Virus record (IMG/VR): IMGVR_UViG_3300045988_037736
Location: 32,001 to 96,000 of that record
DNA: 64,000 nucleotides
Direction: 5' to 3' (one strand)
Origin: a virus
The notes under the pieces were generated by a model. It saw only the letters and a program-made list of their open reading frames with translations. It was not told the DNA's origin and made no database searches. Shown in pieces: positions 15,207-54,701 of the stretch (its first letter is position 1; each line of letters starts with the position of its first letter). The position numbers were made by a program, and so were the translations under genes.

Positions 15207-18200
15207 TTACATAGAGTACTTAGTAGATACATTATATATTGTCACTCTCTAGTTTTTATGTGAGGCACTCCCTAGAGTTATTTCACTCCATGGATTTCTA
15301 ATCCTTGCCCTACCATAGTGCCTTATAACATCTTTACCATCTTGTGCTACATAAGGAGACCTAGGAATATTAATCCTCCATATATTAAACTTCTTCCTTA
15401 TATCTCTACTATTAGTGAGGTCAGTATAAGCTTTCTAATAGTCATTCTCTGCTTGGATAAAATCAAATGGCTTATCAGAATTATCCTTTTGGTCAAAGTT
15501 CCGTACTTCAGCATTAACTTCCACTGTGTCAAAAATTTTTGTGTAAGGAGAATTACCATTAGATATATAAGTGAAACTAAATGGTTTAAAGTTACCATAG
15601 AACTCATTATATACCCCAGTGAAGTTCTCCCATAGCCTAACTTTATCCTATTCCTATTTTATAGAGTAAAAACCACCTTCAAAGTCAAACATACCTTCAG
15701 TTTCACCATAACTTAAAAAGGAAGTGAACTAGTTAAGCTTAGTTGAGAAACATAAAGCTTCTTCGCCATGAGCTGGAGAGAAATATACATCCCCATTCAT
15801 ATTATCAACAAAGCTTCTTACTCCCATTCCTGTAGGAGTCCACTCTGATAAGTCAACATCATTCTTAACCCACTAACTCATTCCTGAAAGCTCACTTACA
15901 TTTACTAATTCCTAACCATATCTATAAATACTTTTGGACTCGTTATCTATGAAGAATAGACCTGTTGAGGTAGGAATAATAGACCATTTATTAGCACATC
16001 CAATAGTAGAGGATAGAATCCTGAACCCATCTACTCTGTTTGAATTTCCTATCTCAATAGGTACTCCGTCTGTAGGATTGAGCTATACTCTAGAATTAAA
16101 CATAATCTAGCTAATAGATTTTTCCTAGAAGCCAATAAGAGTATCATTGATGGAGGTTAGACATGTTACAGACCCTTTATCAGCAGGAAGGTCTAAGGTA
16201 CTAGCTAAAGTGACATTAGTCCATGGGTCAATTATAGACTAGGGATTTTTCTTTAAGGACCATGCTACCTAGTAAGGAAATGTATCTATTTTATAATAGT
16301 CCTTGTCTAGTGTTCTGTAGTTAAAGAAGTTATCTAACTAAGAGTATACTTCATTTATCTTATAAGAGTCAGGAGTAATGTCGAAGTTGGATAGCTGCCC
16401 TCTTTTAGTATCGTATCTTCCATCAAGATTAATATGTGACTCAAGCATAAATGAACCTATTTCTACTATCTAATTAGTATCATCATCTGCAAAAGGATAA
16501 GTCTTTACACAATCATATCTTGTACACCATGTATCCCCATAGGCATAAGGAATCGTAATTATCTTATGTGGAGTTGATACAAGAGGAACTGACTCACTAC
16601 TTGGAACCCATAAGTTATTTTTGATAGCTTCATCCGATTTACCTCCAAACCTAGTGTCTGGGTCAACCCACTATGTTAATTCAGCTATAGGTAATGTGGG
16701 GGAATAATCTTTATCCTCTTCAAGTAACTACAGAGTGCTATTCTGGATGGTAAACGTATTATCTGTATTATCTGTAGATGGCTCTGAATACATTTTATAA
16801 GATGTAATACCAACTATATTTCCGAGAGATACCTTTAAGTTTAATAATACCTAATCCCCAAGATACTAAAAGTTATCATGACCATCCTGTAAGTTTTCAA
16901 AAGGACCCCATTTTATTGGCCCCGCATTCTGAAGAACTCCTACCCACTCACCATTTACATAGTGATGATAGATTATACATCCTTTCTTCACTAAAACAGT
17001 CACTTTAGTTCCTGAGTTTTGTACCTGCCAATACCCTACTTCTCCTATCTTTACCCTTTTAACCAATACACGCTTAGCTATGGGTCCAATGTAAGCCATT
17101 ACAATCTGATAGGTTCCTAGAGCAGTCACACTTGTATCGTCAACATCTAGTACTAAGTTCCCCTCTTTGTTATAAGTCCCATAAAAGGTTTTTGAGCCTA
17201 TAAATGAAAGGATAGGATATGAAGTACTGGTAGAAGTATTATTCTCCCATCCAGAGGGGGTATACTATGAAGTTATAGTCTCACCAGTAACAGAAGTGTA
17301 TGGTAGTACTGGAATAACCTTAGGGTTATCCTCATCATATAAAGAGAATACTAAGTGAGGAGATGATTTATACTTCATTCTTACTGACTCCCCAGAAGTA
17401 GGTACATTAGTAGGGGATACTTGTGAAATACTATCATCAGTACCAGCATAAATAGGATAAGCTGATGTGGCTGATACAATATCATCTACATTTCCAAAGT
17501 ATAGTACATCCTAGTCTAAATGTGGAACACGAACAGTTAAGCCTGTAACCTCTTTAGAAGAGAATAACTTAGGAGTTGTAATTTTAATATTGTGGTTATT
17601 AGAGTTAAAAAAAGTTGACTTACTTTCAAAATACTTTAAATTGGAAATAATCTTCCATTTTAGTATAGCTGTTCTATTTCCGGATTTCTCTATAATCTCA
17701 GGAGACCTGACAATATCATTATTTAGTGAGCCTGTTCTATGCCAAGGATAAACTAAATATTTAACAATACCTGTCTTATCATCATCTAAAAAATCCCCTC
17801 TTAGTATTTTATCTTCAAAACAACATGATGATACAAATCCTCCATTAACAGTAGTATTAGGAGTAGTACAGTTCACTGGAAATCCTACAGGATGATGTAT
17901 AAATCCTCCAGCCTGAGAACTAGCTTTAGAGGTCACTGCTAAATCTATATCTCCATACAATCCATGTAGGCTAGCGGCTCCAACAATATTTAGCCTTGCT
18001 CCTTCTAATTGAGTAGTATTTATATAGGACCCATACTCAATTTCTGGGGAATGTAAAGTAACTAAGTTACTATCAACAGCAAAAGTTGAATAATGAGACT
18101 TTATACCATCAGAGGGAGAAATAATTTCCTATATTGACTTATTGGAATCTCCTGGCAGAGATGACTATATTTCAGCACTTCTATTACCTCCACTGAAAAG

Positions 18201-19955
18201 TGTATAATTATGTTTATACTAAATAGTCGACCCCTAATCTATCGAGGTAGAGGTTTCTTTTGGCTTTCCATCTACATATACAGGAGATGGCCTAAAGAAC
18301 CAAGATGACATTGCATATGGGTTATTCATGTGCCTTCCTCTCACACTGTAGACAGTAGGATTTAAAACTCCCTAACATATAATATTTCTCTCCGCTGGCT
18401 TAGGGAAAACAACACAAGTTCTAGCCCTTCTTACTCCAGCTTTTAATAATGAGGCAGTTGCATTAGGGAATAACTAAAGTTCCTTAGTATCCACCCCGTC
18501 AGTAGTGCCCCAAAAATATGAATTATTTAACTCTACATCAAGAAAACCATCACCATCACCATCACTATTCCTTATGACTTTGTTTAATGGAATAGGTTCT
18601 GACCATTCTCCAGTCTTAAACTAAAATTGAACTCCTAATCTATATGTTTCTCCTGCCTTAAAATGACCAGGCTTAAACTATGGTAGATAAGGATAGTATT
18701 TATTTATACCCTAATTATCATAAGTATCTTCGGCTAAAAAACAATCTGTTAACCCTAAAGAGTCCCCATTTTCAGCCTCTTCCTATTGAAGTAATGTAGT
18801 TAGTTCTTTAGTATTTTTCTGAACAGTAATGTTTCCATAAAACATCACTCCTTCTTTGCTAGTGATAGTTCCAGCTAATATTGTTTGTCCCCCAGTATAT
18901 AATAGTTTAGCAGGGTCTTCTATTGAACCAGTAAGACCAGTATCTGTATATTCAATTGTTTTTACCAGCTAATCCTCAGAACCAAACACATCATACCAGT
19001 ATTCTCCTTCAGCACTTTCCTCCTAGCAATCTTTTAAGTCTAAGTCAGCTACAATCTTAACTGTAGGCTATGCGTCTAGTGAAGTTCTATGTATAGAATA
19101 AACCCTTATATAATCAAAGTTATCAACATTTTCTACTTTAATTGTGAAAGAAGTTATAACCTTCTCTTCTGGATTACCAGCTCTATCATAATTCCTTATA
19201 TACTATATGGGAGATACATAGAATATGTTACTTTCTTGCCCATACTTATTAAAGTATGTAAGAGCATATTGAATTACTCCAGGAGAAAATTCTCCATGAC
19301 TGGAACTTCTACCTACCAGTACTCTTTCTTTTAACTATAGGTTCTATACAAAATCAAATGGAGACTCAGCTCTGTATATCCAATTTCCTTTTTCATACCA
19401 CTTTTCTAGATTTTCTATAACTTCCTAGGAAACTCCCTCACTTTTCTATGGATTTGAGAAATTAACTCCGTCTACTATAACTTTACTAGCTATATCTTCA
19501 GGAAGTTTCAACTCTGGGGCAGTTATATTAATAACTCTAGGCTGGTTAATTCCATCTGTCCAATACAACTTATTCACAAGAACTGACTCACTATCCCCTA
19601 ATATTTCTAGAGGGTGATTAGCATCAAGACCTAGCACTCCTTCAAATAGAGTAACTTTAATCCACTCCCCTTTATCTTCATGGAGTCTATATATTCTAGA
19701 TACTTCCTGAGTGTCATTCTAACTTACAGTAAATACTACTAAGTATCTATTAAGCACACAATGTCCTACGTACTACCCATCAAAAACAACACCAGTGTCC
19801 GTATTTCCCTTCTCATTAGTGATAGAAAACCCAGTATCACTATCCCTATTAGTAAGTCTCACATTTAAAGCATCCCATAAAAAAGACTCATCTTGTCTTG
19901 ATGGGTGAACATCTCTCCTTAGGCCTTTAAATATATGATTATCTGAATACATCAT
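15207..19955 (-). CDS. giant (~1582 codons) tail-fibre/tail-like protein encoded with dozens of in-frame TAG codons
   Basis: Five tracked minus ORFs in this span (ending at 16866, 17511, 19446 and 19773, plus the start MMYSD at 19955) share one frame. Each ends in CTA (=TAG on the minus strand). The first TAA in that frame is at 15207-15209. No other frame has ORFs >=60 aa across 5.7 kb. Confidence 0.55.
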
Positions 19956-19965
19956 GTTAATATAA

Positions 19966-20664
19966 TTAATGAAGTTTGATATACTCCTTAGAACCAAGAG
20001 TTTTAAACCCTTTGCTATGCTCATTAGTCCTGGAGATTAAAGTATTCCAAGAATTAGTGAAAGATTGGAGTTGGTCAATAGAGGGCCTAACAAGGTCAGA
20101 CTGAGCTTGACCCACTGCCCAAGCATATTGTTGTTCTGCGTGTTGCAGAACCTGTTGAGTTATCCTACCAAGCTCAAACTGAACTGTAAAATGTTTTACC
20201 TTTATAAATAGCTCAAGTGCTTCCTCAAAAGAACCATTCTCTGGTATGAGAGGGAATCCTTCTTCATCTGTCGAGAAAGCTCTATAAGCTACTTCTATAG
20301 TTCCTTCCTTCATAGAAGTAAAAATACAACTTCCCTGTAGTTTATAGGTAAGGTCATTATCTCTTGTCTTATCAGGACTCATATGAAATGAATCAGTAGA
20401 GTATCTGAATACTTCATGAAGTACTCCATTACAGTTATGACCAACTGCTCTTACCTGTATCATTTCATAGAAGTCACAAGGTAGCTTACCTCTATAATTC
20501 TCTATCTCAACCTTCTCTGTTTTCTCAAGGAATATTGAGGGCATACCTACCTTCTGTATGAACCTGACAGCATAATTGACTGCCCTTTCTAAAGATAAAT
20601 CTTGTAGCAAGGGATTATCCATCAGGTTATCAAGAACTTGTCTTATGCTTATATATTTTGTCAT
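19966..20664 (-). CDS. hypothetical protein 232 aa
   Basis: Clean ORF, TAA stop 10 nt upstream of the next gene's start. Confidence 0.65.
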   Translation of the reverse strand: MTKYISIRQVLDNLMDNPLLQDLSLERAVNYAVRFIQKVGMPSIFLEKTEKVEIENYRGKLPCDFYEMIQVRAVGHNCNGVLHEVFRYSTDSFHMSPDKTRDNDLTYKLQGSCIFTSMKEGTIEVAYRAFSTDEEGFPLIPENGSFEEALELFIKVKHFTVQFELGRITQQVLQHAEQQYAWAVGQAQSDLVRPSIDQLQSFTNSWNTLISRTNEHSKGFKTLGSKEYIKLH

Positions 20665-24105: not shown

Positions 24106-24116
24106 AGTGTATAAAA

Positions 24117-24145: not shown

Positions 24146-24148
24146 TGA

Positions 24149-25189: not shown

Positions 25190-25208
25190 AATTTATTTTA
25201 TTAAGTTT

Positions 25209-27777: not shown

Positions 27778-29292
27778 TTAGCCCTGTAGTATAGCAGGGA
27801 TAAGTGACATTGTTCTAGTTGGGTCAAGAACACAAATACCAAGAGTAGCCATCCTATGGAAGGTAGCTGAATCTTCATCATATGACATGAATTGATTACC
27901 AAGCTGACCTGTGAAAGGATTTCTCAATCCCCATTGATAACCTCTGAACTCCTCTTGTCCCTTAATCTTACACTTGAAGATATTGGGCTGGTCCATAGTA
28001 CCAATGTACATGATGTCATACCTGTAAGAGAAGGCAGGTCCACCATCAGGGTGTTGTACCTTGTTTCTTATTGGGTCATCATAGTATGGGTCAACATCAA
28101 GCTTCACTCTTACACCATTAGGTGCCCTGTACTCTACAAACTGGAAGCCAGCTGCAAGAGCATTAGTATGAAGATTGCTTTGTGTCTTCTCAACAACATT
28201 CAGAGCATCACCATTAAGTGTGAACTGAGTCCATCCACTTACAGTCTGAAGTACAGCCTTATGGAATTGTATAGCACCTCTTTCACCTGTCTTAATGACG
28301 AAGTACCTATCACCAAAGTCAAGCTTGGATGCAGACAGTTCATATAGGGCATCTTCAAGAAGTTTCAGGCTGAACTTGTTGTAGTACTGAGTATTAGCTA
28401 CCTCCATCTGTTCAAACAGACCAGCACCCATCTTAATAACTTCACCTGACTTACCAAAGTTCAGATACTCTCCATTGTTGTTTCTGTTGCTTCTACCAAA
28501 GGCAAGAATGTTATTCTTGTATTCAGAGAATGTCTGTTCAACTTCCCAGTCAACATAGTGCATCCACATGTTAACTACAGACTTAGTGTAACCTGTAGGA
28601 GTTTCCTTTGTTACAGGAATACCACATGCAAGTTTCTTGTTGAGCATATTGCCAGGCACCTTATGTTGGATTCTGATGGTAGACCATTCATTTCTCATAG
28701 ATACAGGAGAAGTGAATCTAACATCACCAACTTTCCTTGAAAGTGCTCTTTCTACAGGAGCATATTCATAGCTGAATCTTTCTCCTGGAAGGAGTCTTTC
28801 AGCAGGAATACCTTGGGTAATACCACCCATTAGCTCTACCTTGTAAACTGCATTAGTACCTTCCATTCTCGGATTACCAAGAATCCTCATGGGATATACT
28901 TCATTCAGATTACCTACAATTACTTCACCATCAGCAAACCAGTCCTCAGGGAAGACAAGCTCAAACACAGCTGTACCAACACCTACATTGGCAGTAGTTG
29001 CTGCGGTTACTACATTGCCATTCTCATCTCTTGCCTCAAGCAGAGGAATATTCCTTCTGGTAGAGCCAATTACATCCCAGTAATATTCTGAGTCATCTTC
29101 AAACTCTTTTGTAGGGAACTGGCTTAGGAAGGTATCAAGAGTCTTACCTCTGTACCAAGCTAATAGCTGTACCATTAGGTTAGTTGCCTTCTGTGGAGCA
29201 AGCTGGAAGATTTGACCAAGGTGGTTGTCCTTTGTCAGACCTTTCCAGTGAGAAAAGCCAATCATTTGGAACTTATTCAGTTTTCCAGCCAT
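27778..29292 (-). CDS. major capsid protein candidate (504 aa, HK97-fold-like by size and position)
   Basis: Follows the acidic scaffold-like gene and is followed by a terminator. No TAG. The assignment is positional and compositional inference. Confidence 0.5.
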   Translation of the reverse strand: MAGKLNKFQMIGFSHWKGLTKDNHLGQIFQLAPQKATNLMVQLLAWYRGKTLDTFLSQFPTKEFEDDSEYYWDVIGSTRRNIPLLEARDENGNVVTAATTANVGVGTAVFELVFPEDWFADGEVIVGNLNEVYPMRILGNPRMEGTNAVYKVELMGGITQGIPAERLLPGERFSYEYAPVERALSRKVGDVRFTSPVSMRNEWSTIRIQHKVPGNMLNKKLACGIPVTKETPTGYTKSVVNMWMHYVDWEVEQTFSEYKNNILAFGRSNRNNNGEYLNFGKSGEVIKMGAGLFEQMEVANTQYYNKFSLKLLEDALYELSASKLDFGDRYFVIKTGERGAIQFHKAVLQTVSGWTQFTLNGDALNVVEKTQSNLHTNALAAGFQFVEYRAPNGVRVKLDVDPYYDDPIRNKVQHPDGGPAFSYRYDIMYIGTMDQPNIFKCKIKGQEEFRGYQWGLRNPFTGQLGNQFMSYDEDSATFHRMATLGICVLDPTRTMSLIPAILQG

Positions 29293-33368: not shown

Positions 33369-33665
33369 TTATTTTCTATTCTCCCTTATAATAGAATCAA
33401 GTTCTTTCTTAGACCATGATAATTCTTTGAAACCTGCCTGATGTTTACCTCTAGGCAATCTGCCTGCTCTGACATAATTATCAAATGTAGCTCTACTTAT
33501 ATTAAGGTATCTACAGGCTTCATACTTACTGAGTCTCTGTTTCTTATCAACAAATCCTTGAATAGCCTCCACAACCTGCATAGTCTCTTCATGGTTAGAA
33601 CTAATGGAACCTTCATCAATTCTATCGGCTATACGTCTTAATAGATTGCTTATTATGTTTAACAT
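33369..33665 (-). CDS. small helix-turn-helix DNA-binding protein 98 aa
   Basis: LSKYEACRYLNISRATFDNYVRAGRLP resembles an Xis/MerR-type HTH. Confidence 0.5.
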   Translation of the reverse strand: MLNIISNLLRRIADRIDEGSISSNHEETMQVVEAIQGFVDKKQRLSKYEACRYLNISRATFDNYVRAGRLPRGKHQAGFKELSWSKKELDSIIRENRK

Positions 33666-34029
33666 ATAGATATAATATTGTGAATAATGTCAGTCCTGTT
33701 ATGACACTGTGAATCATCATTAAATTAAAGTCTGATATAGGTATTCCTACATAATAATCAACTATATTCAGTATGTCTATGACAAGTATATAGTACAGAA
33801 ACATTCTATGATATGCACAAAATCTGAATACTATAGAGGCTAAGTAAATGAATACCCATGTAAACAAAGACATCCCAGCGAGGTTACTCAACACTGGAAT
33901 GTCAATATCTATATATGCAAGTGCTGTGTTTAACATATAGCACATTGCTATCAGCATTGGTATAATCTTTAAGGAGCCTAAAAGTACCTTATACAGGACT
34001 TCACTTCTTAAGACATCCTCCTTTGCCAT
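33616..34029 (-). CDS. multi-pass membrane protein ~136 aa (holin-like candidate)
   Basis: Three to four hydrophobic segments. The tracked ORF ends in TAG, followed by one codon and then TGA. Confidence 0.45.
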
Positions 34030-35357: not shown

Positions 35358-36311
35358 TTACGTACCACTCAGCTAATCTTCTAAGGCTGTAATTCTCTTG
35401 TCTAAAGTAGATATCATATCTATAATCTATATATAATAAGGGGACATCTAATAAAGTGAAACACCTATTGGTGTATTTCCGTGAGAAGACCTAGTTATAA
35501 TCAGCTCTGAATTCTGGTTTTGAGCATTAGGTAATGCTGGTATAATAAGATTAAAATATTGGCTATACCTAGTTGTATACTGAATGTTGTCCACTAGAAG
35601 TTTTAATTCGCCAGTTGTGCCATTATTATATGTAACGCTTACACCGTACCTCATATTACTATTTTGATTGGCATATTCCAGTCTAAGTACAAGAGGAAAA
35701 GAAGTATAAGTCTGGGGTGATGTAGGAATTCTAATCTCCGTTTTGTCTCCAAATGAATGACTGCTTAATTTAGTTAGTACCACCCCCTCAGGCATATCGT
35801 TCCGTATTTCTTGTATCTATGGCAGATAGGCAGGGATTTTGGCCTCCACCATGTACTTAGTCCCAGCTGTTCTAGAGAAAGAAATTACTAATGTAGAAGA
35901 AGTACTATCGTCAGTGGTATACTGTTGTCCCTCTTCCCAGGAACTGTTAGTGCTGTAGCCCCCTACAAATCCCGTTTCTAAAAATTCACTAGCTGTTACG
36001 TCCTATGTGGACTCTTCAAAGTGCCAGCCATCATTGTCATTGCCAACAGCTCTCTGTACGAATAATTTTCCAACGAAATTCTTATTTAAGAGCTGTAAAG
36101 AAATTTTGCTTGGTGTTACCCCGCCAACATCATTTTCAGGTCTAACCCTTATGTTAATGCTGCCTTTTATTGGAAACGCCCCTCCGGCCGATGCTAGTAG
36201 TTCAATAACATCAGTTGGTAGTATCGTAATACTATTCTCATCTTCTATAAGAACGTCCTCTCCATCTAGAGATTGAGCCTGTGGATTAAGTTTCATTCCC
36301 TCAACTAGCAT
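35358..36311 (-). CDS. hypothetical protein ~317 aa with ~5 in-frame TAG (ORFs 36003-36311 + 35448-35795 joined)
   Basis: Both ORFs share a frame. Each ends in CTA (=TAG). Hand translation of the linkers shows no TAA/TGA before 35358. Confidence 0.4.
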
Positions 36312-36412
36312 AGTTGAAGTAATGTCATAGAATGTACTCTGTGAATTAAGGTACAGGAGCTAGTTCTATACTTCATCAAAAAACTTTTCACCTAAATATT
36401 TGAGATTCATAT

Positions 36413-37516
36413 TCAAAATTCATTTATCTTTTTAACTATTTCAGTTGCTTCAATCTCCTGCAAGTTAGTATAATGGCCGTCTCCCTCACCTTCAGTAAGT
36501 GTAATGGTTACTTGTTTAATAGGATACTTTACTATAAGCATCCTACCACCTACCCCAAAAGTTGGCTTATAACATTTAATACAAAGGTAATAAATGTTTA
36601 TTGCATCCTCACCAACATCAATATATTTACCTGTAAGAATAGACCAGTCATAGCCATCCTTATGAAGAGAACATAAGAATCTGAAACCAGTATAAGGACT
36701 TCCTACCTAAGTTTTAGATGGGACAATAGTACATAGCACAGTCCTATTATCCCTCTATTCTAGTATCTCTATAAATTTGAAATAATTTTTATTAGAAGGC
36801 TATAAAGTTTCCTGTTTGAAAGTTGTTTCTCCTTGACTTACTAAATCTAGTTCTATTATTCCTGCATCATAAGGAACCCTACTGTCAAGAGTATCTATTC
36901 TCTCATGAAGTCCACTTAAGTCATAGTCAATGAAGTTCTAATTACCCCTGAGAATCTAGTCATAAACAATCTTCCTATACTTAGGTACACCATTATTCTG
37001 TAGAACTGTAAATATTATTGGTCTATGGTCATAACCATCAGCATAGTCATACTCTTCTTCCAGAAGCTATTCAAAAGTTCTATAATCATTTTCTGATACA
37101 GTTATTTCTAATTCAAGTGCATTAGAAGAAGGTCTACTTGTATAGAAATTAATAATTCTAGAATTTACATTAGACTGTGCACTAGTAGAATTATTAACCA
37201 GTGTTTCTACCTAACTAGGCAAAGAATTCAAGGTCTAGTTGACTCTCTATACAGCACTGTTAGCATTAGCTCCAGCAATCATACATTGCTAAGATGCACT
37301 AAGTGCAGACTGAGCAGCTGCATTAGCTTCATCTGAGGCTTCTTTAAGAGCACTGGAAGGAATGGTTACTAGCTCCTTAGAGTCTTTCTTATATGCAGGA
37401 AAACTATTCACATCATCTAAGCTGTTGGCCTCTGGAAGGTCTTCAACACTTACTGAAGACTTAGAGAGAAAAGCTAGCAACTCATTAAATAGTTCATCCT
37501 TTTCCTATTTAGTCAT
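36413..37516 (-). CDS. hypothetical protein ~367 aa with ~10 in-frame TAG
   Basis: Manual translation from the ATG at 37516 (MTK-TAG-EKDELFNELLAFLSKSS...) is protein-like down to the TGA at 36413. It contains tracked ORF 37289-37480. Confidence 0.4.
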
Positions 37517-37523
37517 ATCTACA

Positions 37524-38318
37524 TTATTTATTAATTAAACTTTCTGGCTTGAGATGAAGGGTCCTAGCCTCATTCATTCTCATATTTAACCCCTTTATCC
37601 TTACATCAGCATTTAAATTAAACCTTATTCCTTTATACCTATCAAGTAAAAAAGTAGTTTTATATATGTGCCATTTATTATCAGGTTCTATTCTCAAAGT
37701 ATCTTTTATTTCAATAGACTCACCATCCTAATCTACGGTAGCTATTTCTATATTACCAAATGAAGTTCCTTTAAATTTGAATGTTAAAGTAACATAGAAT
37801 GGGAATTTATAATCAGGGTCTATTGCTTCTAGATTTAAAAATGGGAAGGGCTAAGTAAGAGTACAAGGGATAGTGGAACCATTTACAGCTAATACAGGAA
37901 CTCCGTCTTCTCTGATTACAGCAGCTTTAGCTCTCTATTTGGATAAGAACCCTCTTCCTACCTTAATAAACTTAGGTCCTACTGTAAAAGGTTGGAGAAT
38001 TTCAGATAACCAATATTTAGTGCTGTCAATAAAAAATGAATTAGTGAGAATATTATCAGCTTCAATTACTGTAAAAGCATTCTCTATTTTCCATTGATTA
38101 CTTATAACTATTTCAAGTAATGCCCTTAGTACCTCATCTACATTATCTTTATTATCAAAAAAGATAGACTCAAATTTTATATCTGAAGCTTTAATATTGG
38201 TATGAAATGGTTCCCAACCTCCATTATTCCAGTATAGTAGATTACCCTTCCAATACCATAAGACTTCATGGTCCTATGGTTCTTTTGGAGTTTGTACTAT
38301 TGCTCTAAACTTTCTCAT
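37524..38318 (-). CDS. hypothetical protein ~264 aa with 4 in-frame TAG
   Basis: Start MRKFRAIVQTPKEP overlaps the preceding TGA (ATGA). Manual translation runs to the TAA at 37524. Confidence 0.45.
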
Positions 38319-39274
38319 TGCATTGCCTCAATAGTGATTAATACTTTGCTTGGGTCAGTTTGGATGTTAGCTATTATCTTAAGATAATTCCAACTATCTT
38401 CATTACCAGCTACAATGCTAGGACTATTAAATGTCTTTTGAATAGGACCCATTGAAACCTGAGGGCAATTAACTTCAAAATCTCCATTTGAAGTGTGAAC
38501 AGTCAGAACTACATTCGAAGCTTTTTTGAACTGAGCCACCCCTACAGAGTCAGTTATCTCTTTATTTATTATAGTTGTAGAAGTTATTTCAGCTAAGTTA
38601 ATAACCCCTAAATCATAAAATAATTCAGAATGGTCAAAGTGGTCAGCATCCCTTCTACAAGCTCCATCCGCAGTTAATATGTAATGCACTCTGTTACCTG
38701 ATGCTGTAGTGATGGTAGCTTCTCCACCTGCATTAGGATGCCAAGAACCTACTCCAATGCCATAGTCAGCATGAACAAGGAACTATGTTCCTGCCACCCT
38801 AGACAGCTGTTCTCTATTATATGCTTCAATCTCAGGAGAGTCACCTAGTTCAAGGTCAACATAGGTAGGAAGTAGAGTAAGGTCAATAACTCTAGTCTAC
38901 TTTACAAGCCAATTCTCATTGTAGTCTACATTGAAAATAATAGCCTTGCCATCGGCAATTGCTGTTACTTGACCATTATAAAACGTTGCTAAAATTTTGA
39001 GTGGCGCGTCGCGGTCTCTATTTACAAGTATAACAGGTACATAGTCATGTAGGGGACTCAGTTCTCTCTCTTCAAACTTTAACTTAGCCTCTGGATTGTC
39101 TTCTCCTATCGTTAATATTATATCAGTTATCTCCTCCTAGCCATCTTGTATCACCGAACTTACTATATCAGTCCATTTGCCATTGTTATGGTATTGAAGT
39201 TTGTCATTATGGAGCCACAGACTATTGGTAGGAGGGGCTGAATTTGAATGTATTATATTATCAAATTTTCTCAT
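38315..39274 (-). CDS. hypothetical protein ~319 aa with 3 in-frame TAG (C-terminal part = ORF 38315-38689)
   Basis: Start MRKFDNIIHSN overlaps the portal TAA (TAATG). Frame is continuous if TAG is sense. Confidence 0.5.
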
Positions 39275-41673
39275 TACTTACTAGTATTTGGTTTCTTATT
39301 AATCTATTTTCTTTTGAGTTCAGCATCAGTTTGAGCTTTCTTCTTATCAAAGGCTAACCTTTCTCTGTCAAGTTTGAGCCTCTCATCAAACTCTCTCATC
39401 TTTTCAAACAGATTAGCTCTTGCCTCTTCAGAAAACTCCTGCTCTTGGATGCCATCTTCCTGACTTTGAGAACCTATACCTGCTATAAGTATCTTAGTCT
39501 CATTATCTCTCTGATTCATTGTATCTTTGAGCTGCATTTCAGCTTCCCTTATCTGAGCTTCCATCTGAGCCTATTGTTGCTGAGCCTGTAATTGCTGCTG
39601 TTGAGCTTCCTGCTGTCTTTGCATAAGCTCCTGTTCATTCTTCTCAACCATTCTCTGTTTTTCAGCAAGAGAAGAGCTATTATAGAGCTTCATGATAGTG
39701 GAGAAGGTAAGAGTCTGATTCTGCAAAGCTGCCTGAGCAAGCATATCCATCTTCTGCTGTAACTCCTGTAGTCCATTACTATTATCTACAACAAGGCCAT
39801 AATCATTTTCAGAGAACTCATCTCCATCTATGTCCATAACCTTACTTGAATTATCAGAAAGAATATACTGGAACTTCTTACTTCTGCCTCTTAAAGCTAT
39901 CTTAGCTGTTTCAAGGAATGCCTCAAGAACCCTCTTCTTTACATCATCATGTATGATAAAGAGCCATTCAGTTATATGAGAAGATTGTAAGGTAGCTCTT
40001 TCGACACCACCAACAGTCTCTCTATTACTTATCTGACCTTCTCTTTGCCTAGAAATACCAGCCACATCAGACATTTCCATCTTGATAAACTCAAGAAGAT
40101 TGGTATATTGCTGTATAGTATTACCAAGTTCAGCATTGACAACTCCAGAACTTGCATTGTTAAGAGCACCTGCAAGCTTACCTGTAGCAGCACCAATATT
40201 GCCTTCCTTAAAACTATCTGTAACTACAATACCATTAGTCTTAGCAAAGTACATCCATTTCTCTATCTCCCATCCTTTAGGAACCTTAGCAAGGTCAAGG
40301 TTAATAAGCATACCCCAGTTTCTTGAGATTAGCTTGTTGAGCCTATCATGAATTGTATCATAGAGATAGTTATAGGGCTTCATCATATCAACAAGAGAGA
40401 AAGGCTTGTTGTCATTAAGGTTATAGATAGAACCTATAATACCAAAATGGCACCTTGAAGGATTGGATAGTCTGTTATACTGAACTACTCTAGGTCTCAT
40501 GTTGACATAGATGTCATTACCTATCTTTGTCCCTTCCCAGGCTTCATTGATATATAATATCTTTTCCTCCTCACCTTTGTCCTTATCTATAACGTAAGTT
40601 TCTGGGTAGAGATTAAATACCTCTTCACCTGTCTGAGGGTCGTAAGACTTAACTTTCTTAATTCTCCTTCTTGATTTCCAGTAAACTCTAAGTACCCTTA
40701 TATTTCCTGCAACATCAAAAGGAAGAAGTGAAGTGCCTACACCATCTGTCATTCCTATGGGGTCCCAGAAGAAACCTTCCTGAGAAGTAAATTCTTCCCC
40801 TATCATGTGCCCATTTACAAACCCCATTCTATCATCTATGTTATCCATAGAGTCAGTTACTTGGTCTGTGTTATTGGGCATCTTTTCTATGTACTCCATG
40901 TCCTTTTTGGTAAGGACATCATAATAAGTGTCTATGATTTTACCAGGACTCCAATAGTCCTCAAGTACAATCATATCAGCATCCTCAATCCTGTTACTAT
41001 ATCCTGACTTGAATACTCTGACTTTAAGAGGATTTAGTCTTTCTATGATAGGTTCACCACCTACAATATCACATTGGTAAATCTCTTCACCTACTGCCAT
41101 TGCATCAGTGAAACCTTGATTAAAGAGGAAGGGGAAGTTGAGTTCCTTGGAATAGTGGTTAAGGAGAGCATTAGCTCTCACTTCTCTCATATCTTGCCAC
41201 TCAAATGTAAAGAAGTCATTGAGCTTCTCTAGCTCTGCATTGAACTCTTCCTCTGACTGAGTCTCTTCAGATAACAGTTGCTGTACTCTTGCAAGTAGTT
41301 CCTGCTTCTTGTTGTTCTCTATTTCAGAGATAGCATTTGGATTAGTTACAACTACCCTATAGTCAAATACTCTCTTGGACTCTTCTCCCCTAAGAACATT
41401 TAATTTACTATTCATTATAGGGTAATGCTGAATCCTTTCAGGTATGTAACCTGCCTTTATATTATCAGGGTTCAATACCATTGCAAGGTCACTCATGTGA
41501 AGCCTACCATTAAGTAAATCATAGTTGATTTTCTTATGTATCACACTCTTCCTTACCAAAGAATAGTTGAAAAATGTCTTAGAGTCAGCCCAGTCAAGGT
41601 GCTTCTTTCTCCAAGCCTTATTCTTTCTGGAGAATGGCAGTTGTTGTGGGGGTAAATTTGTGAAATCACTCAT
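39274..41673 (-). CDS. portal protein candidate (~799 aa; ORFs 39571-41673 + 39304-39564 + tail joined through 2 TAG)
   Basis: 700-aa ORF immediately downstream of the terminase. First TAG sits inside a poly-Gln run (QQQQLQAQQQ-TAG-AQMEAQ). True TAA at 39274-39276. Confidence 0.5.
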
Positions 41674-41773: not shown

Positions 41774-44700
41774 TTACTGTATATACCCTTGGGAGTAATT
41801 CCTTTGGAAGAAAGAATCATTGCCTAAGTATGAACTACTGACTTCCTCCTGTGCCTTAGCATTAAGATTATCTCTATACAGTATAATCTTCTCTTGTCTA
41901 TACAGCATAACCATACCTAATGCCCTGATTCTATCCACATTAAGTTCAGGAGTGTAGGAAATTAACTCTTCAAGTAATGCTCTATTTCTTAGAGAATAGA
42001 GCCTTGGAATATTGACCTCTTTCTCTTCTCCATCCTCCTTTATTATAGTTGGAACTGGCTGAAGTAGCCAATCCCTTATCAGGTTATTAGCATAATTGTT
42101 GATAGTAGCATTCGCATTGATACCTTTTGCATTTGAGCCAAAGGCAGAATACTTAATCATCTGTTTGTCTCTTAAATATTCAGGAGTATCTGCCAGTAGG
42201 TGTGTGCATTCCATTCTGCTAAAGTAACCATACAGGCCCTTCTTATTGGATTCATACATGCACTTGGCATTATAGAATAGACACAGCATTCTTACTATCT
42301 CAAAGTTATCATCTGCAAATGCCTGCCTACCAGTGTATTCTGCTACAATTCTGTCAGTAAACAGGTCAAGTACAAAGGTTGAAGAAAGAGAAGAAGACTC
42401 TGCCTAATCATTATCCACAGGGTCATGGCCTATAATATATCTCATATTGAAATCATCCCCATTTGCTTGTTTCTCAGGCATTTCAAATATCTCAATAGCA
42501 CCTACTGTTGAATTGTCAACTCCATACTTTCTGATAGGCACATCATTACCTATTCTAAACTCTACCTTATTACCACTTGCTAGGGCAAGATTACCTATGT
42601 AAACATCATCAAAAGCATGAGGGTCTGAGTCAAGTTGAGCCAATCTCTCAGTAAGAGCTACTGTAGGAAAGTAGGCAGCCTTCACTTTAATGATAGCTTC
42701 AGCTGGTGTAATTGGGTCCTCGGCAATAACTCTTAATACTGACTTAGGGTCAGCAGAATATTTAGCTTTGTGTCTTGCCAACAGAATTTCTATGAGAGCC
42801 TTTGTTACATCAGAAACACCATCCTTGTTGTAACATCCTGCCCTATTTACATAAGAAGGAAAGAAAAATCCAAAGGTAGGCTTTCCTTGCTTAGGTCTGT
42901 CATAGACATTCTCAATAGCCAGAATATTGTAACCATCTGGATTGTAAAGAAGAGTTTTTGCCGAACTGAAGTCTGACTCATCCTCAGCAGCAGTATTATG
43001 AGTTACTATATTGTTAGCCAAGTAGGTATGACTTAATCCAGCAGTTAAATTATATACTTCTTGTTCACCTATCTCTTCTACAGAAGTAACTTTGTGAACT
43101 ATTATATCCTCTGGATATTTTTGAGCCTTCATACTCGGATTGCTATTATAATAGTCCATTATCCTTTTAAGGCAATCTCTCTTGTGCGGAACAAGAAGTT
43201 GAAGCACACCACACACTCTTGTACAATTATGTCTCCCTGATATAGATAGAGTAAACCAAGAATTTCTATCTTTCCTATCAGAACATAGTTTTGGCTTAGT
43301 CTCCACAATAGTGCCAACTACTCCAAATTTTCTCCACAGTACTTTAACTTGCTCTAATATTTTCCTATTGCTTTGAGTTAAAGATATATATCCGTCTCTA
43401 TTAAAGCTTATACTACCATCAGTATCATATAATCCAGATAGCAATAGTGAGGTATCATCTCTTGTAAGAGTCTAATAGTTGATAGGAAGCCTTTTATTGG
43501 ATTTTACTTGCCCCTAAATACCTAATTCTCTTAATTTATTACAAATACCTTTAATTCTTATATCCTCGTATATTTTTCCTTTCTTGGTAATATGAGTAGC
43601 AGATAATGACCATTCATATCTATGCTTTACATAGTCTAAAAGCTCTTTATCCTCAGAACTATACTTGGGGGATTGCCTTAATCCATAAGAACCATCTCCA
43701 ATAAGCATACCTACTAATCTAGGGTCAAACATGGTATCTGTCCCAAATATTGGAACTTCCCTACTCTCTATAATTCTATCTCCTACACTTAAAGCTCCAG
43801 CATTTTTGAATACTTCTTCATAATACCTTATAGACCCATTATGATTCATTCTTTGTTTCTGAGTAAGAATTGGATGGTCTGTAGAGCATCTAAGTTCATT
43901 TCCATTACTCAGTTTAATAAGTACACATGGTTTTTTAGCAATACTTATAGAACTCATTATAGGTTCTTTGGTAATCCCTCTTGTGAGGTGAATATTAGGT
44001 TCAGTACCTGACTCAAAGGAGTCTGTAAATCCTATGATACCATCCTCTCTCTTTAAATCCTCTATATTGATATTCCTGCCATCTAATGTCCATACCTTAG
44101 TACCAGCACATACACAACCTACAAGGTACATTGTAGCAAATGTATAGTCACCATCTTCTACAGACTTTCTTGTGATGTCATACAGGGATAGAAGTCCCTT
44201 AAATGAACCCATCTCCTCGAATAGAATCCAACCTCTCTTACCTCTTAACTTCTCTGAGTCATCCTTTGCAGAAACAGCAAGCACCTGATTCAATGACCCA
44301 CTTTCAATACCAAACTCATCCTTGTAGCCCATCTGCCATGCCATCTCATTAGGAGAGTTCTTTAACATGAGCCTAGGGAATGGAGTATTTTTGAAGGAGA
44401 AGTTAATTCCAGGTTTGAACTTAGAGAGTGTGCCATCCTTACTGTCACTAAGATACTCTTTCTGATAAGCAGTAAGTACAGTAATAACCCTCCTCTTTAC
44501 TTCAGTAGATTCACCAAGTATAAGGTTGTGAGACATTATACTTGCAAGACTATATGACTTTGCACAATTATGAGTAGTTATAAAGTCCCCTACTAAATAA
44601 CAGGAGTCTTTAGAGTCTACAGTAACACATTTACAAGGAGATACCCCAGCATACTCAATATTGACTATGGCAGTTTTGTTCTTTCTTGATAAAGCATTGG

Positions 44701-46180
44701 TGCTACTATAATGTACACCACTCTTCTTCCTTGGCAAATTAAACAGTTCTTCTCCACCATATACTGCTATTTCATAGCAATCAGAGCATTGTATGTAACC
44801 ATTAAAAGCTTTATACCTTGCTCTGCTCTTAGATATCTTGGTGTTATATCCAAGACTTCTAGCTATAAAATCCACATCTTCGATTAGTCTTTTTGAAATA
44901 GAATTTAGTGTAGGTACTCCTCCATGTATAGAGCCATCTGTATCAAATAGCCCTTTTAGGACTTTTAATCTTACATCCCTTGAGTTGTACTTGTATTCTT
45001 CAGGAATAAACTTATCTATAGATTTTGCATTATTCAGTCCATAAGACTGCAGGATACTATTCCAATTAGGAATATGTACTCTATAAGAATATTTACCTGC
45101 CCACTTAGTATATTTGTAGGGAATATAGTTCTTTTCTATATCAAAGTCCTTATCTATTTGGGTAAAATAGCAAGAACCATGCCTAAAGCACCCATCCCCT
45201 AATAGAAGTCCAAATGTATAAGGTTCTACCAGAGTATCTTTATATGGCAAGTTTATTCCTTCATTCCCAGGAATGAAACAGTTATATTCAATACCAGAAG
45301 GAATCCTATAAGAGGGAGTTCTATTAGTCTTGTAATTAGACAATAGCCAAGCTGTATTGACTGTCATATTCTTCCCCTTCCTCTCTATATTCCATAAGTG
45401 GTCATCAGTAGCAAACACCGTTCTGCCATCCCTAAGAGTTATCTTGTAGTAAGGAGAGACTTGGTCGTAAGGTATATCTATAACAGTACAGACAGAATTA
45501 TCTGTAGCATATAATTTATCTCCTATCTTAATATCCTTCCACAGCTTCCATCCTTCTGGGGTAAACACCTTCTGGAAATAGGGGTGAGCACCCCTCTTTG
45601 CAAGTTCTATGGCATGTTTACCAGCCTCTCTTGCTTGATGAAGATAGTGAAATCTCCAATAGATTCCTTCAAAGAAGAAGGGGAAAGACTCAACTCTGAC
45701 AGCTTTCCTTGTGCCAGAAATTACCTTATTTACCATCATGGGACAGTAATTAAGAAACCAATAAAGGAATCCTGTGACCCATTCTCCATCACTCTCCCTT
45801 ACATAACCCTCTCTACATCTCCTCATCTCCTCATCCCAGTGCTTTCTGTATTCACTGTTAGGATTAGAATTTGGTCTTAGAAAAGTATAGCAGCCATGCT
45901 TCATAAAGTGTAAGGCTGGTTGTCTGAAATAATCCATATCCTCAAGTATATGAGGATTGGCAAGGTCTACTATAATCCTTCCTTGCTCATCTCTTGGTCT
46001 ATCCTTAGCATATACCCTATTAGGAGAGATAAGTCTTTTTATAAGTTCTACACTATTTATAGTGTCCAATAACTCCTCCTTGACCTCCTCAGGTAAAGAC
46101 CCAAGGAGTTCATCAGTCAAGGGGGTCTGGTACTCATTCATTTCAATAGCCGAGGTATTCTCCATAGATAATATCTTCAA
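41774..46180 (-). CDS. terL: terminase large subunit interrupted by two inteins, each carrying a LAGLIDADG homing endonuclease. 3 in-frame TAG (two inside intein 2, one in the C-terminal extein).
   Basis: Three same-frame ORFs (43514-46180, 42404-43444, 41774-42289) are separated only by CTA (=TAG). Intein 1 runs ...AHPYFQKVFTPEGW...ATDDHLW...LLLGDGCF...LKGLFDTDGSI...VGDFITTHN|C. Intein 2 runs CVCAGTKVWTLDG...STDHPILT...LVGMLIGDGSY...LSGLYDTDGSI...NNIVTHN|T. C-terminal nuclease motif YIIGHDPVDND. Walker-B-like ILFEEMG. Confidence 0.65.
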
Positions 46181-46556: not shown

Positions 46557-47064
46557 CTCTTACCTTATTGCTCTGAGCAATTTCCTTGGCAATAGCTGCT
46601 TCAGCTTCATTCAAATCTTTCACAAGAGTAGGAATCTGCTTGATAGTTGCAGTGATAGTATTGAGAGTATAGATAGGTTTACCCTTATCATCAAGGGCAC
46701 CAAGGTCTATTTCCCTCAATAGAGTCCTCAGCTTATCAACTGCCACTCTGGTATCTTCAAGAAGTAATGCAGATGCTGGCTTGAAAGTCTTATAGAACTC
46801 CATTGCCTCAAGTACAAGGTTATCAGGCTCCCAGTCATTAGGTAAGCCTTCACCTTCCTTAATAGAAGCCTTCCTACTTTCCTCATCTATAATGTACTGA
46901 TAGTCACTTCTTGGGTCAGCCATAAAATATATGTAGGAAATCTCGGCTATTGCTCTATTTTTGTTTGCAGACCTGTCCCTGTTCCATATCTTCTTAAAAG
47001 GAGTTAATGCTAAAGCTTCAGGAGATATGATTACCTTATAACCTTCAAATTTAAGTAGTTTCAT
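46522..47064 (-). CDS. hypothetical protein ~180 aa (internal start MKLLKFEG preferred over the tracked start at 47160)
   Basis: The tracked N-terminus overlaps the GIY-YIG gene by 110 nt. The internal ATG removes the overlap. Confidence 0.5.
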   Translation of the reverse strand: MKLLKFEGYKVIISPEALALTPFKKIWNRDRSANKNRAIAEISYIYFMADPRSDYQYIIDEESRKASIKEGEGLPNDWEPDNLVLEAMEFYKTFKPASALLLEDTRVAVDKLRTLLREIDLGALDDKGKPIYTLNTITATIKQIPTLVKDLNEAEAAIAKEIAQSNKVRGAQEKAMYEDL

Positions 47065-47716
47065 TTTTATATTTCCATTTATAACCTCCAGCTGATGGTC
47101 TTTTACCTCTAGCACATCTTGATATGTGAGTCTCCAAAACTCCAGTATCTCTAGCTGCATCAGCTATTGATGGGTATGTACAAATTATATTTCCTTCTTT
47201 ATCACATTTAACTATTTCAATTAAGTCATGATAACTGTGATTAAGTCTCATCTTAAGCTTAGCCTCTTCAGACTTAGGCTTTCCTTGTAAGGATAAACTT
47301 ATCTTTAATTTATGCTCTATTGTGAGAGGAACACCTTTGAATCTGGAACTTACTAAGAGCTTAACATGCTCAGGTATCTTTTTACCTTTGCCTTTAACAC
47401 TCATTTTTCTTCTAGTCTCTTCAGAATGCCTATATCCAAGAGACCCTTCCCCGCCATCAGTTATATTATAAGATATGCCTAGCTCCTTATATTCTTTAAT
47501 TAAGGTTATCTCTAACAGATTAGCTTCCTCTTTAGTTAGTCCTTCTTTTATTATATCATGCTTAAAGTTATCCCACCCATACTTTTCTATGGCTCTCTTA
47601 AAGATACCTGTTTTGTATCCTCTCCCCTCTTTCCATCTCTTTCCCACATTAAAAGAGGTCTGACCTATGTAGACCTTGCCATTAACTTTATTGGTGTGTT
47701 TATATACTGTGTACAT
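47051..47716 (-). CDS. GIY-YIG homing endonuclease (third copy)
   Basis: MYTVYKHTNKVNGKVYIGQT motif. Confidence 0.75.
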   Translation of the reverse strand: MYTVYKHTNKVNGKVYIGQTSFNVGKRWKEGRGYKTGIFKRAIEKYGWDNFKHDIIKEGLTKEEANLLEITLIKEYKELGISYNITDGGEGSLGYRHSEETRRKMSVKGKGKKIPEHVKLLVSSRFKGVPLTIEHKLKISLSLQGKPKSEEAKLKMRLNHSYHDLIEIVKCDKEGNIICTYPSIADAARDTGVLETHISRCARGKRPSAGGYKWKYKNETT

Positions 47717-50313: not shown

Positions 50314-50385
50314 TTAAAGTTAGTCGCCCCACTCTGGCTCGAACAGAGACCAAAGGATTTAGAGTCCTCTGTGCTAACCATTACA
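50314..50385 (-). tRNA. amber suppressor tRNA-Sup (anticodon CTA), built on the tRNA-Gln scaffold
   Basis: TGCCTCA-TG-GTGT-AATGGTTA-GCAC-A-GAGGA-CTCTAAA-TCCTT-TGGT-CTCTG-TTCGAGC-CAGAG-TGGGGCG-A. Anticodon 34-36 = CTA with U33/A37. Positions 8-26 are 18/19 identical to tRNA-Gln(TTG) at 54395-54466. Confidence 0.75.
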
Positions 50386-50890
50386 CCATGAGGCAATATT
50401 TTATTAACAATGCAAAGGTATGAAAAATAATTTAAATTACCAAATAAATTGATAATAAATTTTTAATAAAAGTGTAAATAAAATGGAGATAATATAGCAT
50501 AAGCTACGGTCATATACCAAGATTGATTAGACTCCAGGTCTACACTAGCAGTTCTTTCTTTTTGAACACCAAGAGAATATAATAAATTGTGAGTTCTCCA
50601 TTCATTAAGTAAGCTAAACATAGTTCTGTTATTAATAGAACTGTATGGGTAAAATCTAGCTTTTAAATGAATGAGAAACTACTTCATATCAGATAATGAA
50701 GTGATTTTATAGGAATCATAAATAGCTATATTATTATCAGATATGTCTACTTGATATTTCTGTTTATTATACTAAACTGTGTATTTCATACTTTTACAAA
50801 TAGTAAAGGGGTTATGATAACATGAATTACGCCACCTGAATATTTACAGTAAAACTCAATGTTATATAAATACTTAATTTCTTATTTCAG

Positions 50891-51078: not shown

Positions 51079-51678
51079 TTAGAGAGAAGTATATTCTGCT
51101 TTAGCATCAAAACTTGGACATGCTTTATTTGCAAACTCCCTATGGCCATGTATTGTAGCATTAGGGTACTTTGCTTTAAGCTGTTTAAGAAGCTGTACTA
51201 GAGCAGCTTTTTGAGCTTCAGTTCTAGTATCTTTTGGAGTTTTTCCATCCTTGGCACATCCTCCGATATAGCATACTCCAATAGACATTGTATTGTGCCC
51301 AGTACAGTGTGCTCCAGATATAGCCTCTGGTCTACCAGCATGTATTGACCCATCTCTATAGATTACATAATGATAACCTATATCAGAGAAACCTCTTTGA
51401 AGGTGCCATTGCTTAATCTGCGCAGTAGTAAAGTCCTCACCTTCAGGAGTAGCAGAACAATGAACTATAATTTCCTTTATATTCCTCTTGTTCTGAGTTA
51501 CATTCAGCTTAGACCATGTGTTATTTCCCACTATGCCATCTACAACAAGACCATTAGCCTTCTGAAATTCTTTGACTGCTTCTTCTGTGAGAGGTCCAAA
51601 TATTCCATCATCTTTCAGATTAAGCTTCCTCTGAAGGAGCTTTACATTAGGACCTTTATCCCCTCTTTTTATTACCAT
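51079..51678 (-). CDS. endolysin: N-acetylmuramoyl-L-alanine amidase (Amidase_2/PGRP) with an N-terminal peptidoglycan-binding repeat
   Basis: GDKGPNVKLLQRKLNL..DGIFGPLTEEAV..ANGL is a PG_binding_1-like domain. HCSAT...AHCTGHN...IGVCYIG is the amidase core. It is embedded in the tRNA array. Confidence 0.7.
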   Translation of the reverse strand: MVIKRGDKGPNVKLLQRKLNLKDDGIFGPLTEEAVKEFQKANGLVVDGIVGNNTWSKLNVTQNKRNIKEIIVHCSATPEGEDFTTAQIKQWHLQRGFSDIGYHYVIYRDGSIHAGRPEAISGAHCTGHNTMSIGVCYIGGCAKDGKTPKDTRTEAQKAALVQLLKQLKAKYPNATIHGHREFANKACPSFDAKAEYTSL

Positions 51679-52176: not shown

Positions 52177-52288
52177 GGTAGAAGGGTATTTGTTAAGGAG
52201 TTATTTATCCCTTCCTTCTCCTTAGTAGTCAATTGTAGCTGTTTTTACGGAGGTTTTTCCATGGATAGACTACCTGCTCCTCCAAGGA

Positions 52289-52360
52289 CTCTAGGGTGGG
52301 AATTGAACCCACAAATACTGGTTTTGCAGACCAGCTCCTAACCATTCGGAATCCTAGAGA
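52289..52360 (-). tRNA. tRNA-Cys (GCA)
   Basis: Acceptor CTCTAGG/CCTAGAG. T-arm GTGGG-TTCAATT-CCCAC. Anticodon arm CTGGT-CTGCAAA-ACCAG. Confidence 0.7.
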
Positions 52361-52426
52361 TATAGACATAGCAGTTTGAAACCACCCCAGGGACTACTAT
52401 GCCACTCATGAGTATTGTATGGATGG

Positions 52427-52496
52427 CAGGGCTTGAACCTGCGTGTGACCAACTACCCTTTCTAGTGTGTATAAGACACAGGGGATACATCCATAT
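52427..52496 (-). other. atypical tRNA-like element/pseudogene. Good acceptor and T-arm plus a perfect TGTGT-CTTATAC-ACACA hairpin (anticodon TAT would be Ile/AUA), but no D-arm.
   Basis: Acceptor ATGGATG/CATCCAT and T-arm GCAGG-TTCAAGC-CCTGC are present. The core cannot be folded into a canonical cloverleaf. Confidence 0.3.
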
Positions 52497-52502
52497 GTTG
52501 GG

Positions 52503-52573
52503 GTGCTAGGTGAGAATTGAACTCACATCTTCCACATTCACAGTGTGGTGCTTTACCATTAAGCTACTAGTAC
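52503..52573 (-). tRNA. tRNA-His (GTG)
   Basis: T-arm GTGAG-TTCAATT-CTCAC. Anticodon arm CCACA-CTGTGAA-TGTGG. Discriminator C. Confidence 0.7.
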
Positions 52574-53213: not shown

Positions 53214-53215
53214 AG

Positions 53216-53258
53216 TGGTAGGTAAAAGAATCGAACTTTTACTAGTACCATACCTACC
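53216..53258 (-). other. tRNA minihelix-like element (acceptor stem + T-arm only, 43 nt) directly upstream of the HNH gene
   Basis: GGTAGGT-ATGGTACTAGT-AAAAG-TTCGATT-CTTTT-ACCTACC-A. Perfect 7-bp acceptor and 5-bp T-stem with a canonical T-loop. No D-arm or anticodon arm. Confidence 0.45.
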
Positions 53259-54394: not shown

Positions 54395-54466
54395 GGGAGC
54401 ATAGTTGCCACTAAAGGACTTGAACCCTTACACTCAGAACCAAAATCTGATGTGCTGACCATTACA
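54395..54466 (-). tRNA. tRNA-Gln (TTG)
   Basis: TGCCACT-TG-GTGT-AATGGTCA-GCAC-A-TCAGA-TTTTGGT-TCTGA-GTGT-AAGGG-TTCAAGT-CCTTT-AGTGGCA-A. Same architecture as the CTA suppressor. Confidence 0.75.
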
Positions 54467-54701
54467 CCAAGTGGCAATGTTCTCTTGAATTACAGTGCAA
54501 AGTTAGGTAAAATTTTTGATATATGCAAATTTTTAGACAGAAAAAAAAGGAGAATCACCACACTCGACGCGTCGGGTACAGGTGGCACGTTCTCCTTCTC
54601 TTTTTTTTTTATTTTGTTAAAATTTTGTGTTGGCTTATGTTTTTTATAAAATACCTGCGAAAATCCTCCTGAGAGACAGGAGTCTATCTGCTTTTATAGG
54701 C

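Follow-up and report, generated by a model that had tools for sequence, protein, structure and literature searches.

The portal gene and its two in-frame TAG codons

A 64,000-nucleotide stretch of the viral record IMGVR_UViG_3300045988_037736 (positions 32,001 to 96,000), hereafter the window, carries a portal protein gene whose reading frame contains two TAG codons, TAG1 and TAG2, ahead of a TAA. Is TAG a stop or a glutamine codon in this phage? A preliminary description had placed the end of a portal open reading frame (ORF) at 39274-39600 and taken the TAG in its Gln-rich tract as support for TAG = Gln. The location is correct, although the gene is read from the minus strand, and the letters around TAG1 are exactly as quoted (...ELMQRQQEAQQQQLQAQQQ-TAG1-AQMEAQIREAEMQ...). 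Two TAGs do precede a real TAA; the intervals of 89 and 8 codons given for them should read 88 sense codons between TAG1 and TAG2 (codons 702-789) and nine (INKKPNTSK) after TAG2. Translation of 39274-41673 (minus strand) places stop symbols at codons 701, 790 and 800. When TAG is read as sense, the gene abuts its downstream neighbour at 38315-39274. The features on which the analysis turns are collected in Table 1.

Table 1. Coordinates of the portal gene, its in-frame TAGs and related features of the window
Feature	Position	Strand	Remarks
Portal protein gene	39274..41673	-	ATG at 41673, stop TAA; 799 sense codons when translated with TAG as sense
TAG1	39571..39573	-	codon 701, within a Gln-rich helix; CTA on the plus strand
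TAG2	39304..39306	-	codon 790, 9 codons ahead of the real stop
True portal stop, TAA	39274..39276	-	overlaps the ATG of the next gene (39272-39274) as TAATG
98 codons past TAG1	39277..39570	-	predicted second half of portal barrel and C-terminal tail, from homology to portal C-termini
Four abutting genes (head-fibre/tail-fibre region) 3' of portal	35358..39274	-	25 in-frame TAGs; coding density 23% under code 11 vs 96% with TAG as sense
Muzzle-protein gene (crAss_MUZ, homologue of crAss001 gp44)	15207..20024	-	40 in-frame TAGs vs 22 CAA/CAG; Pfam crAss_MUZ found on homologues
Large terminase (TerL) gene with two inteins	41774..46165	-	in-frame TAGs at 43514-43516, 43472-43474 and 42404-42406
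Suppressor tRNA, anticodon CUA (reads UAG)	50323..50395	-	in tRNA array; ARAGORN anticodon cta; Rfam tRNA, 55 bits
Phage tRNA-Gln(UUG)	54404..54476	-	closest paralogue of the suppressor tRNA

The read-through product matches the portal family PHROG 6547 over residues 5-794 (E=1e-143). A phmmer search against the PDB aligned its residues 1-798 with residues 1-804 of ΦcrAss001 gp20 (7QOG_A) at 1314 bits and about 70% identity, which places it in the P22-like / crAss001 gp20 portal family. TAG1 falls at approximately residue 704 of gp20, within the C-terminal α-helical barrel, which spans residues 672-739 (Bayfield et al. 2023, PMC10172136). The predicted product is thus a full-length portal of 799 amino acids (aa) whose barrel spans TAG1, and termination at TAG1 would halve the barrel and delete the tail. 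The tail itself (...RKQINKKPNTSK) is the same in homologue P0039 and nearly identical in P0044 (EKQINKKPNTSK). In the other two frames of the gene, 8.5% of codons are TAA or TGA, which gives a chance of ~1.6e-4 for a further 98 codons free of both after TAG1. If TAG1 is read as Gln, the tryptic peptide expected across it is QQEAQQQQLQAQQQQAQMEAQIR.

Nucleotide comparison by blastn places the portal gene at 72-75% identity to Steigviridae (DAC15, the crAss001-like PhiCrAssBcn phages and IAS virus). Furthermore, the gene order is that of crAss001: tRNA array, TerL, portal, fibres, major capsid protein (MCP), muzzle, cargo and an RNA polymerase (RNAP)-like giant protein. By synteny and homology rather than by formal phylogeny, the phage appears to be a Steigviridae-like (Beta-group) crAss-like phage. 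PHROGs gave almost no annotation for nine neighbouring proteins; synteny with crAss001 and the Pfam crAss_* families were more informative.

Codons opposite the TAGs in related portals

All of the 120 best portal homologues are 793-814 aa long, and none stops at TAG1. The preliminary description had proposed an alignment to standard-code homologues as the check, and named portals ending at TAG1, with no counterpart to the downstream codons, as the outcome that would overturn its reading; the alignment was made, and close relatives instead run on to full length with a Gln codon at TAG1. At the protein level, the TAG1 column holds Q in 12/12 of the closest and 33/36 of the 36 closest homologues, while the TAG2 column holds Q in 18, S in 16 and A in two of those 36. 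Such database counts are partly circular, some entries having been called with TAG as sense; P0121, whose gene holds 40 TAGs, fails to translate under code 11. We therefore put the weight on codons read in the DNA of relatives whose portal gene translates under code 11 and in cultured phages.

These loci give a consistent picture among close relatives. The two closest relatives with a standard-code portal, L010 and L011 (94% and 93% aa identity to the window portal, respectively), have the Gln codon CAG at both columns. CAA stands at both columns in L002 and L003 (90% identity), and L001 (93%) has CAA at the first and TCT at the second. Either TAG is therefore a single C-to-T transition away from the CAG of the nearest sister genomes. 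Further out, cultured DAC15 (72%) has ATA and CAA, while crAss001, read from the near-identical cultured PhiCrAssBcn4 (70%), has ATA (Ile) and GCT (Ala); the bajarodcaudo virus has CAA at the TAG2 column. Because the residues at the two columns are I/Q in DAC15 and I/A in crAss001, the Gln-rich context of TAG1, offered earlier as independent support, is weak evidence when taken alone. It is the comparison of codons in close relatives that makes the case strong.

Does the sequence past TAG1 behave as coding sequence? In comparisons with L001, L002, L010 and L011, third codon positions hold 41-52 of the 68-80 nucleotide differences beyond TAG1, and 32-35 codons differ synonymously vs 19-23 that change the amino acid. 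The 98 codons after TAG1 thus appear to evolve as coding sequence in the portal frame. The near-twin L012 gives no dN/dS for this segment, its portal being identical to that of the window after codon 188. An independently assembled genome, UViG_3300045988_064014 (98.5% identical), has 35 nucleotide differences in the portal gene and keeps both TAGs, which excludes sequencing error.

TAG as a sense codon across the window

In-frame TAGs are not peculiar to the portal gene. There are 96 of them in 40 credible minus-strand genes, where they make up 14% of Gln codons, and none of these 40 genes ends in TAG, vs 5/44 in crAss001 and 12/43 in DAC15 over the homologous halves of those genomes. None of the credible plus-strand ORFs in the window terminates in TAG either. 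In a greedy non-overlapping gene set, making TAG a sense codon lifts the coding density of the window from 74% (code 11) to 92%; making TGA or TAA sense instead gives 78% and 82%, respectively. Two blocks, at 34.8-39.3 kb and 15.2-20.1 kb, rise from 23% under code 11 to 96-98% with TAG as sense. The statistics leave out an ORF lying over tRNA genes (52245-52559) and the minus-strand ORFs at 62-64 kb, of which those at 62019-63448 look spurious and are rich in Cys, Leu and Phe. The base following TAG is G at 32 of the 96 in-frame TAGs vs one of 40 real stops, which fits in-frame TAGs that are not in terminator context.

The strongest independent test of the meaning of TAG is the muzzle gene. 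Opposite its TAGs, Q occupies 34% of positions in 119 homologues vs a background of 3.3%, a 10-fold enrichment, while other residues reach at most 1.3-fold, and four of the columns are Q in 120/120 homologues. Alignment to the cultured, standard-code phages crAss001 and DAC15 covered 85 TAG columns, 24 of which hold a Q specified by CAG or CAA. A likelihood test with empirical substitution probabilities on these two phages favoured Gln, 33.5 nats above the runner-up Ser. In TerL, the TAG at 42404, in the conserved C-terminal extein, lies opposite Q in L001, L002, L003, PhiCrAssBcn4 and crAss001.

Several genes have a TAG 1-10 codons ahead of their TAA or TGA (33622-33624, the 35373-35375 region, 62034-62036 and 39304-39306), as at codon 136 of 137 in 33616-34029 and codon 346 of 350 in 35358-36410. 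Such near-terminal TAGs may once have ended their genes, with translation now continuing to the stop that follows. Portal TAG2 (39304-39306) is not one of these, because relatives have CAG or CAA there.

The suppressor tRNA and a proposed mechanism

What would decode these codons? Among the 23 tRNAs of the window, one with anticodon CUA sits within a minus-strand array of 21 tRNA genes. ARAGORN labels this tRNA(CUA) 'Pyl', a label that reflects the anticodon only. A UGCC acceptor start with an A73 discriminator context is common, among the 23, only to tRNA(CUA) and tRNA-Gln(UUG), and the D arms of these two are identical at 19 of 20 positions. The homologous tRNA arrays of crAss001, DAC15 and L001 contain no tRNA(CUA).

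In E. coli, supE (glnV) is a tRNA-Gln-derived CUA suppressor that inserts Gln at UAG; suppression there is partial and TAG is still a stop. U35, a major identity element for glutaminyl-tRNA synthetase (GlnRS), is kept in the CUA anticodon, and because it is retained as in supE, host GlnRS would be expected to charge tRNA(CUA) with Gln. Unlike the situation with supE, TAG is here a routine sense codon, up to 65% of Gln codons in one gene, and terminates nothing in the window. For 10% of ribosomes to finish the muzzle gene, per-codon read-through would have to be ~94% or more. Since 40 TAGs in a single essential gene make such a demand, we infer that TAG is reassigned rather than leakily suppressed.

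Taken together, we conclude that this is almost certainly a Steigviridae-like phage that uses TAG as a Gln codon (code 15), and that both portal TAGs are sense codons decoded by the phage tRNA(CUA). The proposed course of events is as follows. TAG would serve as a Gln codon in much of the virion-gene block, both portal TAGs having probably arisen from CAG by a single C-to-T transition each. The tRNA-Gln paralogue tRNA(CUA), presumably charged with Gln by host GlnRS, would decode the portal TAGs and would out-compete host release factor 1 (RF1). Expression of the TAG-containing genes might then be delayed until tRNA(CUA) accumulates, as hypothesized in published work on recoded phages.

Several points weigh against this conclusion. 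Over the whole molecule, tRNA(CUA) is 64% identical to tRNA-Gln and 61% identical to the next-best tRNA. The amino acid that it carries is deduced to be Gln only from the alignments and from its resemblance to tRNA-Gln, and the support for TAG = Gln in this genome is at the level of sequence, not protein. A six-frame search for the release-factor GGQ motif was empty, and the 64 kb, outside which lies about a third of the genome, showed neither a release factor nor a GlnRS gene. Finally, the TAG1 column differs in remoter portals, which have E, I, K or R.

Other readings of the portal TAGs

Could TAG1 act as both stop and sense codon? On this account, TAG1 would terminate translation in the early phase of infection, or at times when tRNA(CUA) is in short supply, to give a 700-aa portal with half a barrel, and would be read as Gln late, serving as a device for timing or dosage. 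Such a dual role would refine the assignment of TAG to Gln, not replace it. The host is presumably a standard-code member of the Bacteroidota with RF1, cultured relatives grow on Bacteroides, and control of this kind has been hypothesized for recoded crAss-like phages (Borges et al. 2021). No recoding was found in cell-fraction proteins from predicted code-11 regions of related phages (PMC9523058), and the plus-strand module at 58.7-64 kb of the window is without TAGs. Against these points, the TAGs are not distributed along a simple early/late divide: the MCP gene, the nine genes at 19966-25904 and the gene for the virion RNAP-like protein all lack TAG. Moreover, the portal TAGs stand at CAG sites of sister genomes, as neutral synonymous drift predicts. 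We regard a dual role as possible, though rather unlikely.

Might TAG be read as a residue other than Gln, such as pyrrolysine, Lys, Glu, Ser, Tyr, Trp or Leu? In favour, every CUA anticodon receives the label 'tRNA-Pyl' from ARAGORN, W fills one muzzle TAG column in 107 of 120 homologues, K, R or G stands in several others, and the whole-molecule similarity of tRNA(CUA) to tRNA-Gln is only marginally the highest. Nevertheless, Q alone is enriched opposite TAG, the invariant muzzle columns are Q, the closest relatives have CAG or CAA in the portal, and the acceptor stem and D arm match phage tRNA-Gln uniquely. Relative to Gln, the likelihoods of Ser, Thr, Asn and Lys are -33, -37, -41 and -52 nats, respectively, and proteomics of related phages gave Gln (PMC9523058). 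A different residue is very improbable. Pyrrolysine in particular was rejected, no search having been aimed at pylS or pylBCD genes: Lys lies 52 nats below Gln, and tRNA(CUA) is a paralogue of tRNA-Gln.

Scarcely credible is a genuine stop at TAG1, which would leave a 700-aa portal followed by either a small gene, the 86-codon ORF at 39304-39564 that opens with an ATG, or a non-coding spacer. The code-11 ORF does end at TAG1, and that ATG comes three codons further on. Yet 0/120 of the closest homologues end there, and the gp20 barrel and tail have their homologous counterpart in the codons past TAG1, where substitutions are of the coding type in the portal frame. The real TAA, in addition, overlaps the start codon of the following gene. 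The same logic would, moreover, fragment at least 20 other genes, including one of 1605 codons. The least probable account, nonsense mutations in a defective genome or errors of sequencing or assembly, has in its favour that either TAG is one transition from the sister CAG, and is contradicted by the same two TAGs in an independent IMG/VR assembly with its 35 differences in this gene, by 96 in-frame TAGs over 40 genes, by the same 40-TAG pattern in L007 and by a dedicated tRNA(CUA).

The CAG/TAG swap at the same portal codons in sister genomes suggests that a recoded stop acts as an ordinary synonymous codon once the suppressor tRNA is fixed. For annotation, the consequence is practical: under code 11 the portal would look truncated and at least 20 genes would be fragmented. 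Since code 11 breaks up genes and leaves two blocks with a coding density of 23%, translation of the window should take TAG as Gln.

Uneven distribution of TAG and mosaicism

In the muzzle gene, 65% of Gln codons are TAG, and in the four genes after the portal the share is 25-58%. The region 3826-14156 (minus strand), the final 10.3 kb in this direction of transcription, comprising the C-terminal part of a gp45-like gene, a gp46-like gene and the gene for a 2390-aa RNAP-like protein, has no TAG among ~190 Gln codons. Also free of TAG are the MCP gene (27778-29292, minus strand) and the nine genes at 19966-25904 (minus strand). The relative L007, which has another RNAP allele, shows the same block-wise pattern. 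One may speculate that TAG use goes by blocks within the virion genes and not simply by lateness of expression, and that the blocks represent a third class of expression, or else a gate at translation separating host-recognition from capsid and cargo proteins, with the two young CAG-to-TAG changes of the portal marking the spread of TAG into core genes; we think this improbable.

The window matches L007 at 96% nucleotide identity, and the match breaks off abruptly at ~11608, inside the gp46-like (crAss_CARGO2) gene (11022-12410, minus strand; 8826-10402 in L007). This break indicates a probable recombination or mosaic boundary, beyond which the two carry different alleles of the RNAP-like gene. 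The muzzle gene has a single relative at 97% identity (P0121), followed by others at 52% and then ~40%, while the portal gene has a continuum of relatives from 94% down. This suggests that the muzzle and fibre cassette may be exchanged as a module.

Relation to other recoded phages

The phenomenon is already known and is a documented habit of Beta-group (Steigviridae) crAss-like phages. One study took standard stop codons within the genes for TerL, MCP and portal as its diagnostic of recoding, and also noted suppressor tRNAs and inteins combined with recoding (Yutin 2021, PMC7886860). Gln was identified at TAG by tandem mass spectrometry in two crAss-like phages, in structural proteins among others (Peters 2022, PMC9523058). 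Recoding has been proposed to time the expression of late and lysis genes (Borges 2021, bioRxiv 10.1101/2021.08.26.457843).

The present phage resembles code-15 crAss-like phages in having in-frame TAGs in portal, TerL and tail genes, a suppressor tRNA(CUA), recoding limited to parts of the genome, and an intein and recoding in one gene. Nothing essential differs; here the MCP gene lacks TAG, and the TAGs cluster in the genes for muzzle and fibre proteins. Unlike the crAss-like set of Borges et al., in which the amidase is preferentially recoded, the lysis amidase gene of the window (Amidase_2 and PG_binding_1; 51079-51678, minus strand, inside the tRNA array) has no in-frame TAG. With ΦcrAss001 the phage shares a portal that is 70% identical over its whole length and the order TerL, portal, head fibre; ΦcrAss001 differs in using the standard code, with TAG as the terminator of some of its genes and no tRNA(CUA) in its array. 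Recoded structural or lysis genes, suppressor tRNAs and standard-code hosts are also features of the Lak megaphages and the Agate, Jade and Garnet phages (Borges et al. 2021). These are other lineages, and some carry a 'code change module' of RF1 or RF2 and an aminoacyl-tRNA synthetase; none of its genes was seen in the 64-kb window, which is part of the genome and where the GGQ search was empty. The window thus adds one more clean case of amber reassignment in a Steigviridae-like crassvirus, and it opens no new question.

Inteins and neighbouring features

The TerL inteins occupy residues 233-568 and 740-1097 of the ORF (Pfam Hom_end, Intein_splicing and LAGLIDADG_3), and two of the three TerL TAGs fall inside the second. 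A 98-99% identical IMG/VR genome (L012, 7529-8539) is without the first intein and has another, of ~1 kb, at a third site (window position ~42250). L003 also has an intein at that third site (8428-9422), while TerL of the close relatives L001 and L002 is intein-free, at 744-746 aa. Because near-identical and close genomes differ in this way, gain and loss of TerL inteins must be rapid, affecting at least three sites.

Free-standing homing-endonuclease genes of the GIY-YIG/NUMOD and HNH types occur upstream of TerL and also among the genes of the tRNA array (47051-47716 and 52737-53333, both minus strand). In L010 and L011, a GIY-YIG gene is found immediately ahead of the portal gene.

At the start of the window, a plus-strand ORF of 1255 codons (1-3768) runs off the edge and is convergent with the RNAP-like gene; its 51 Gln codons include no TAG, and it gave no PHROG match. 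At the other end (58764-64000, plus strand) lies an oppositely oriented module of small genes, whose credible ORFs end in TAA or TGA and contain no in-frame TAG. Two extra tRNA-Arg genes are found there, at 61270-61344 and 61607-61680, both on the plus strand.

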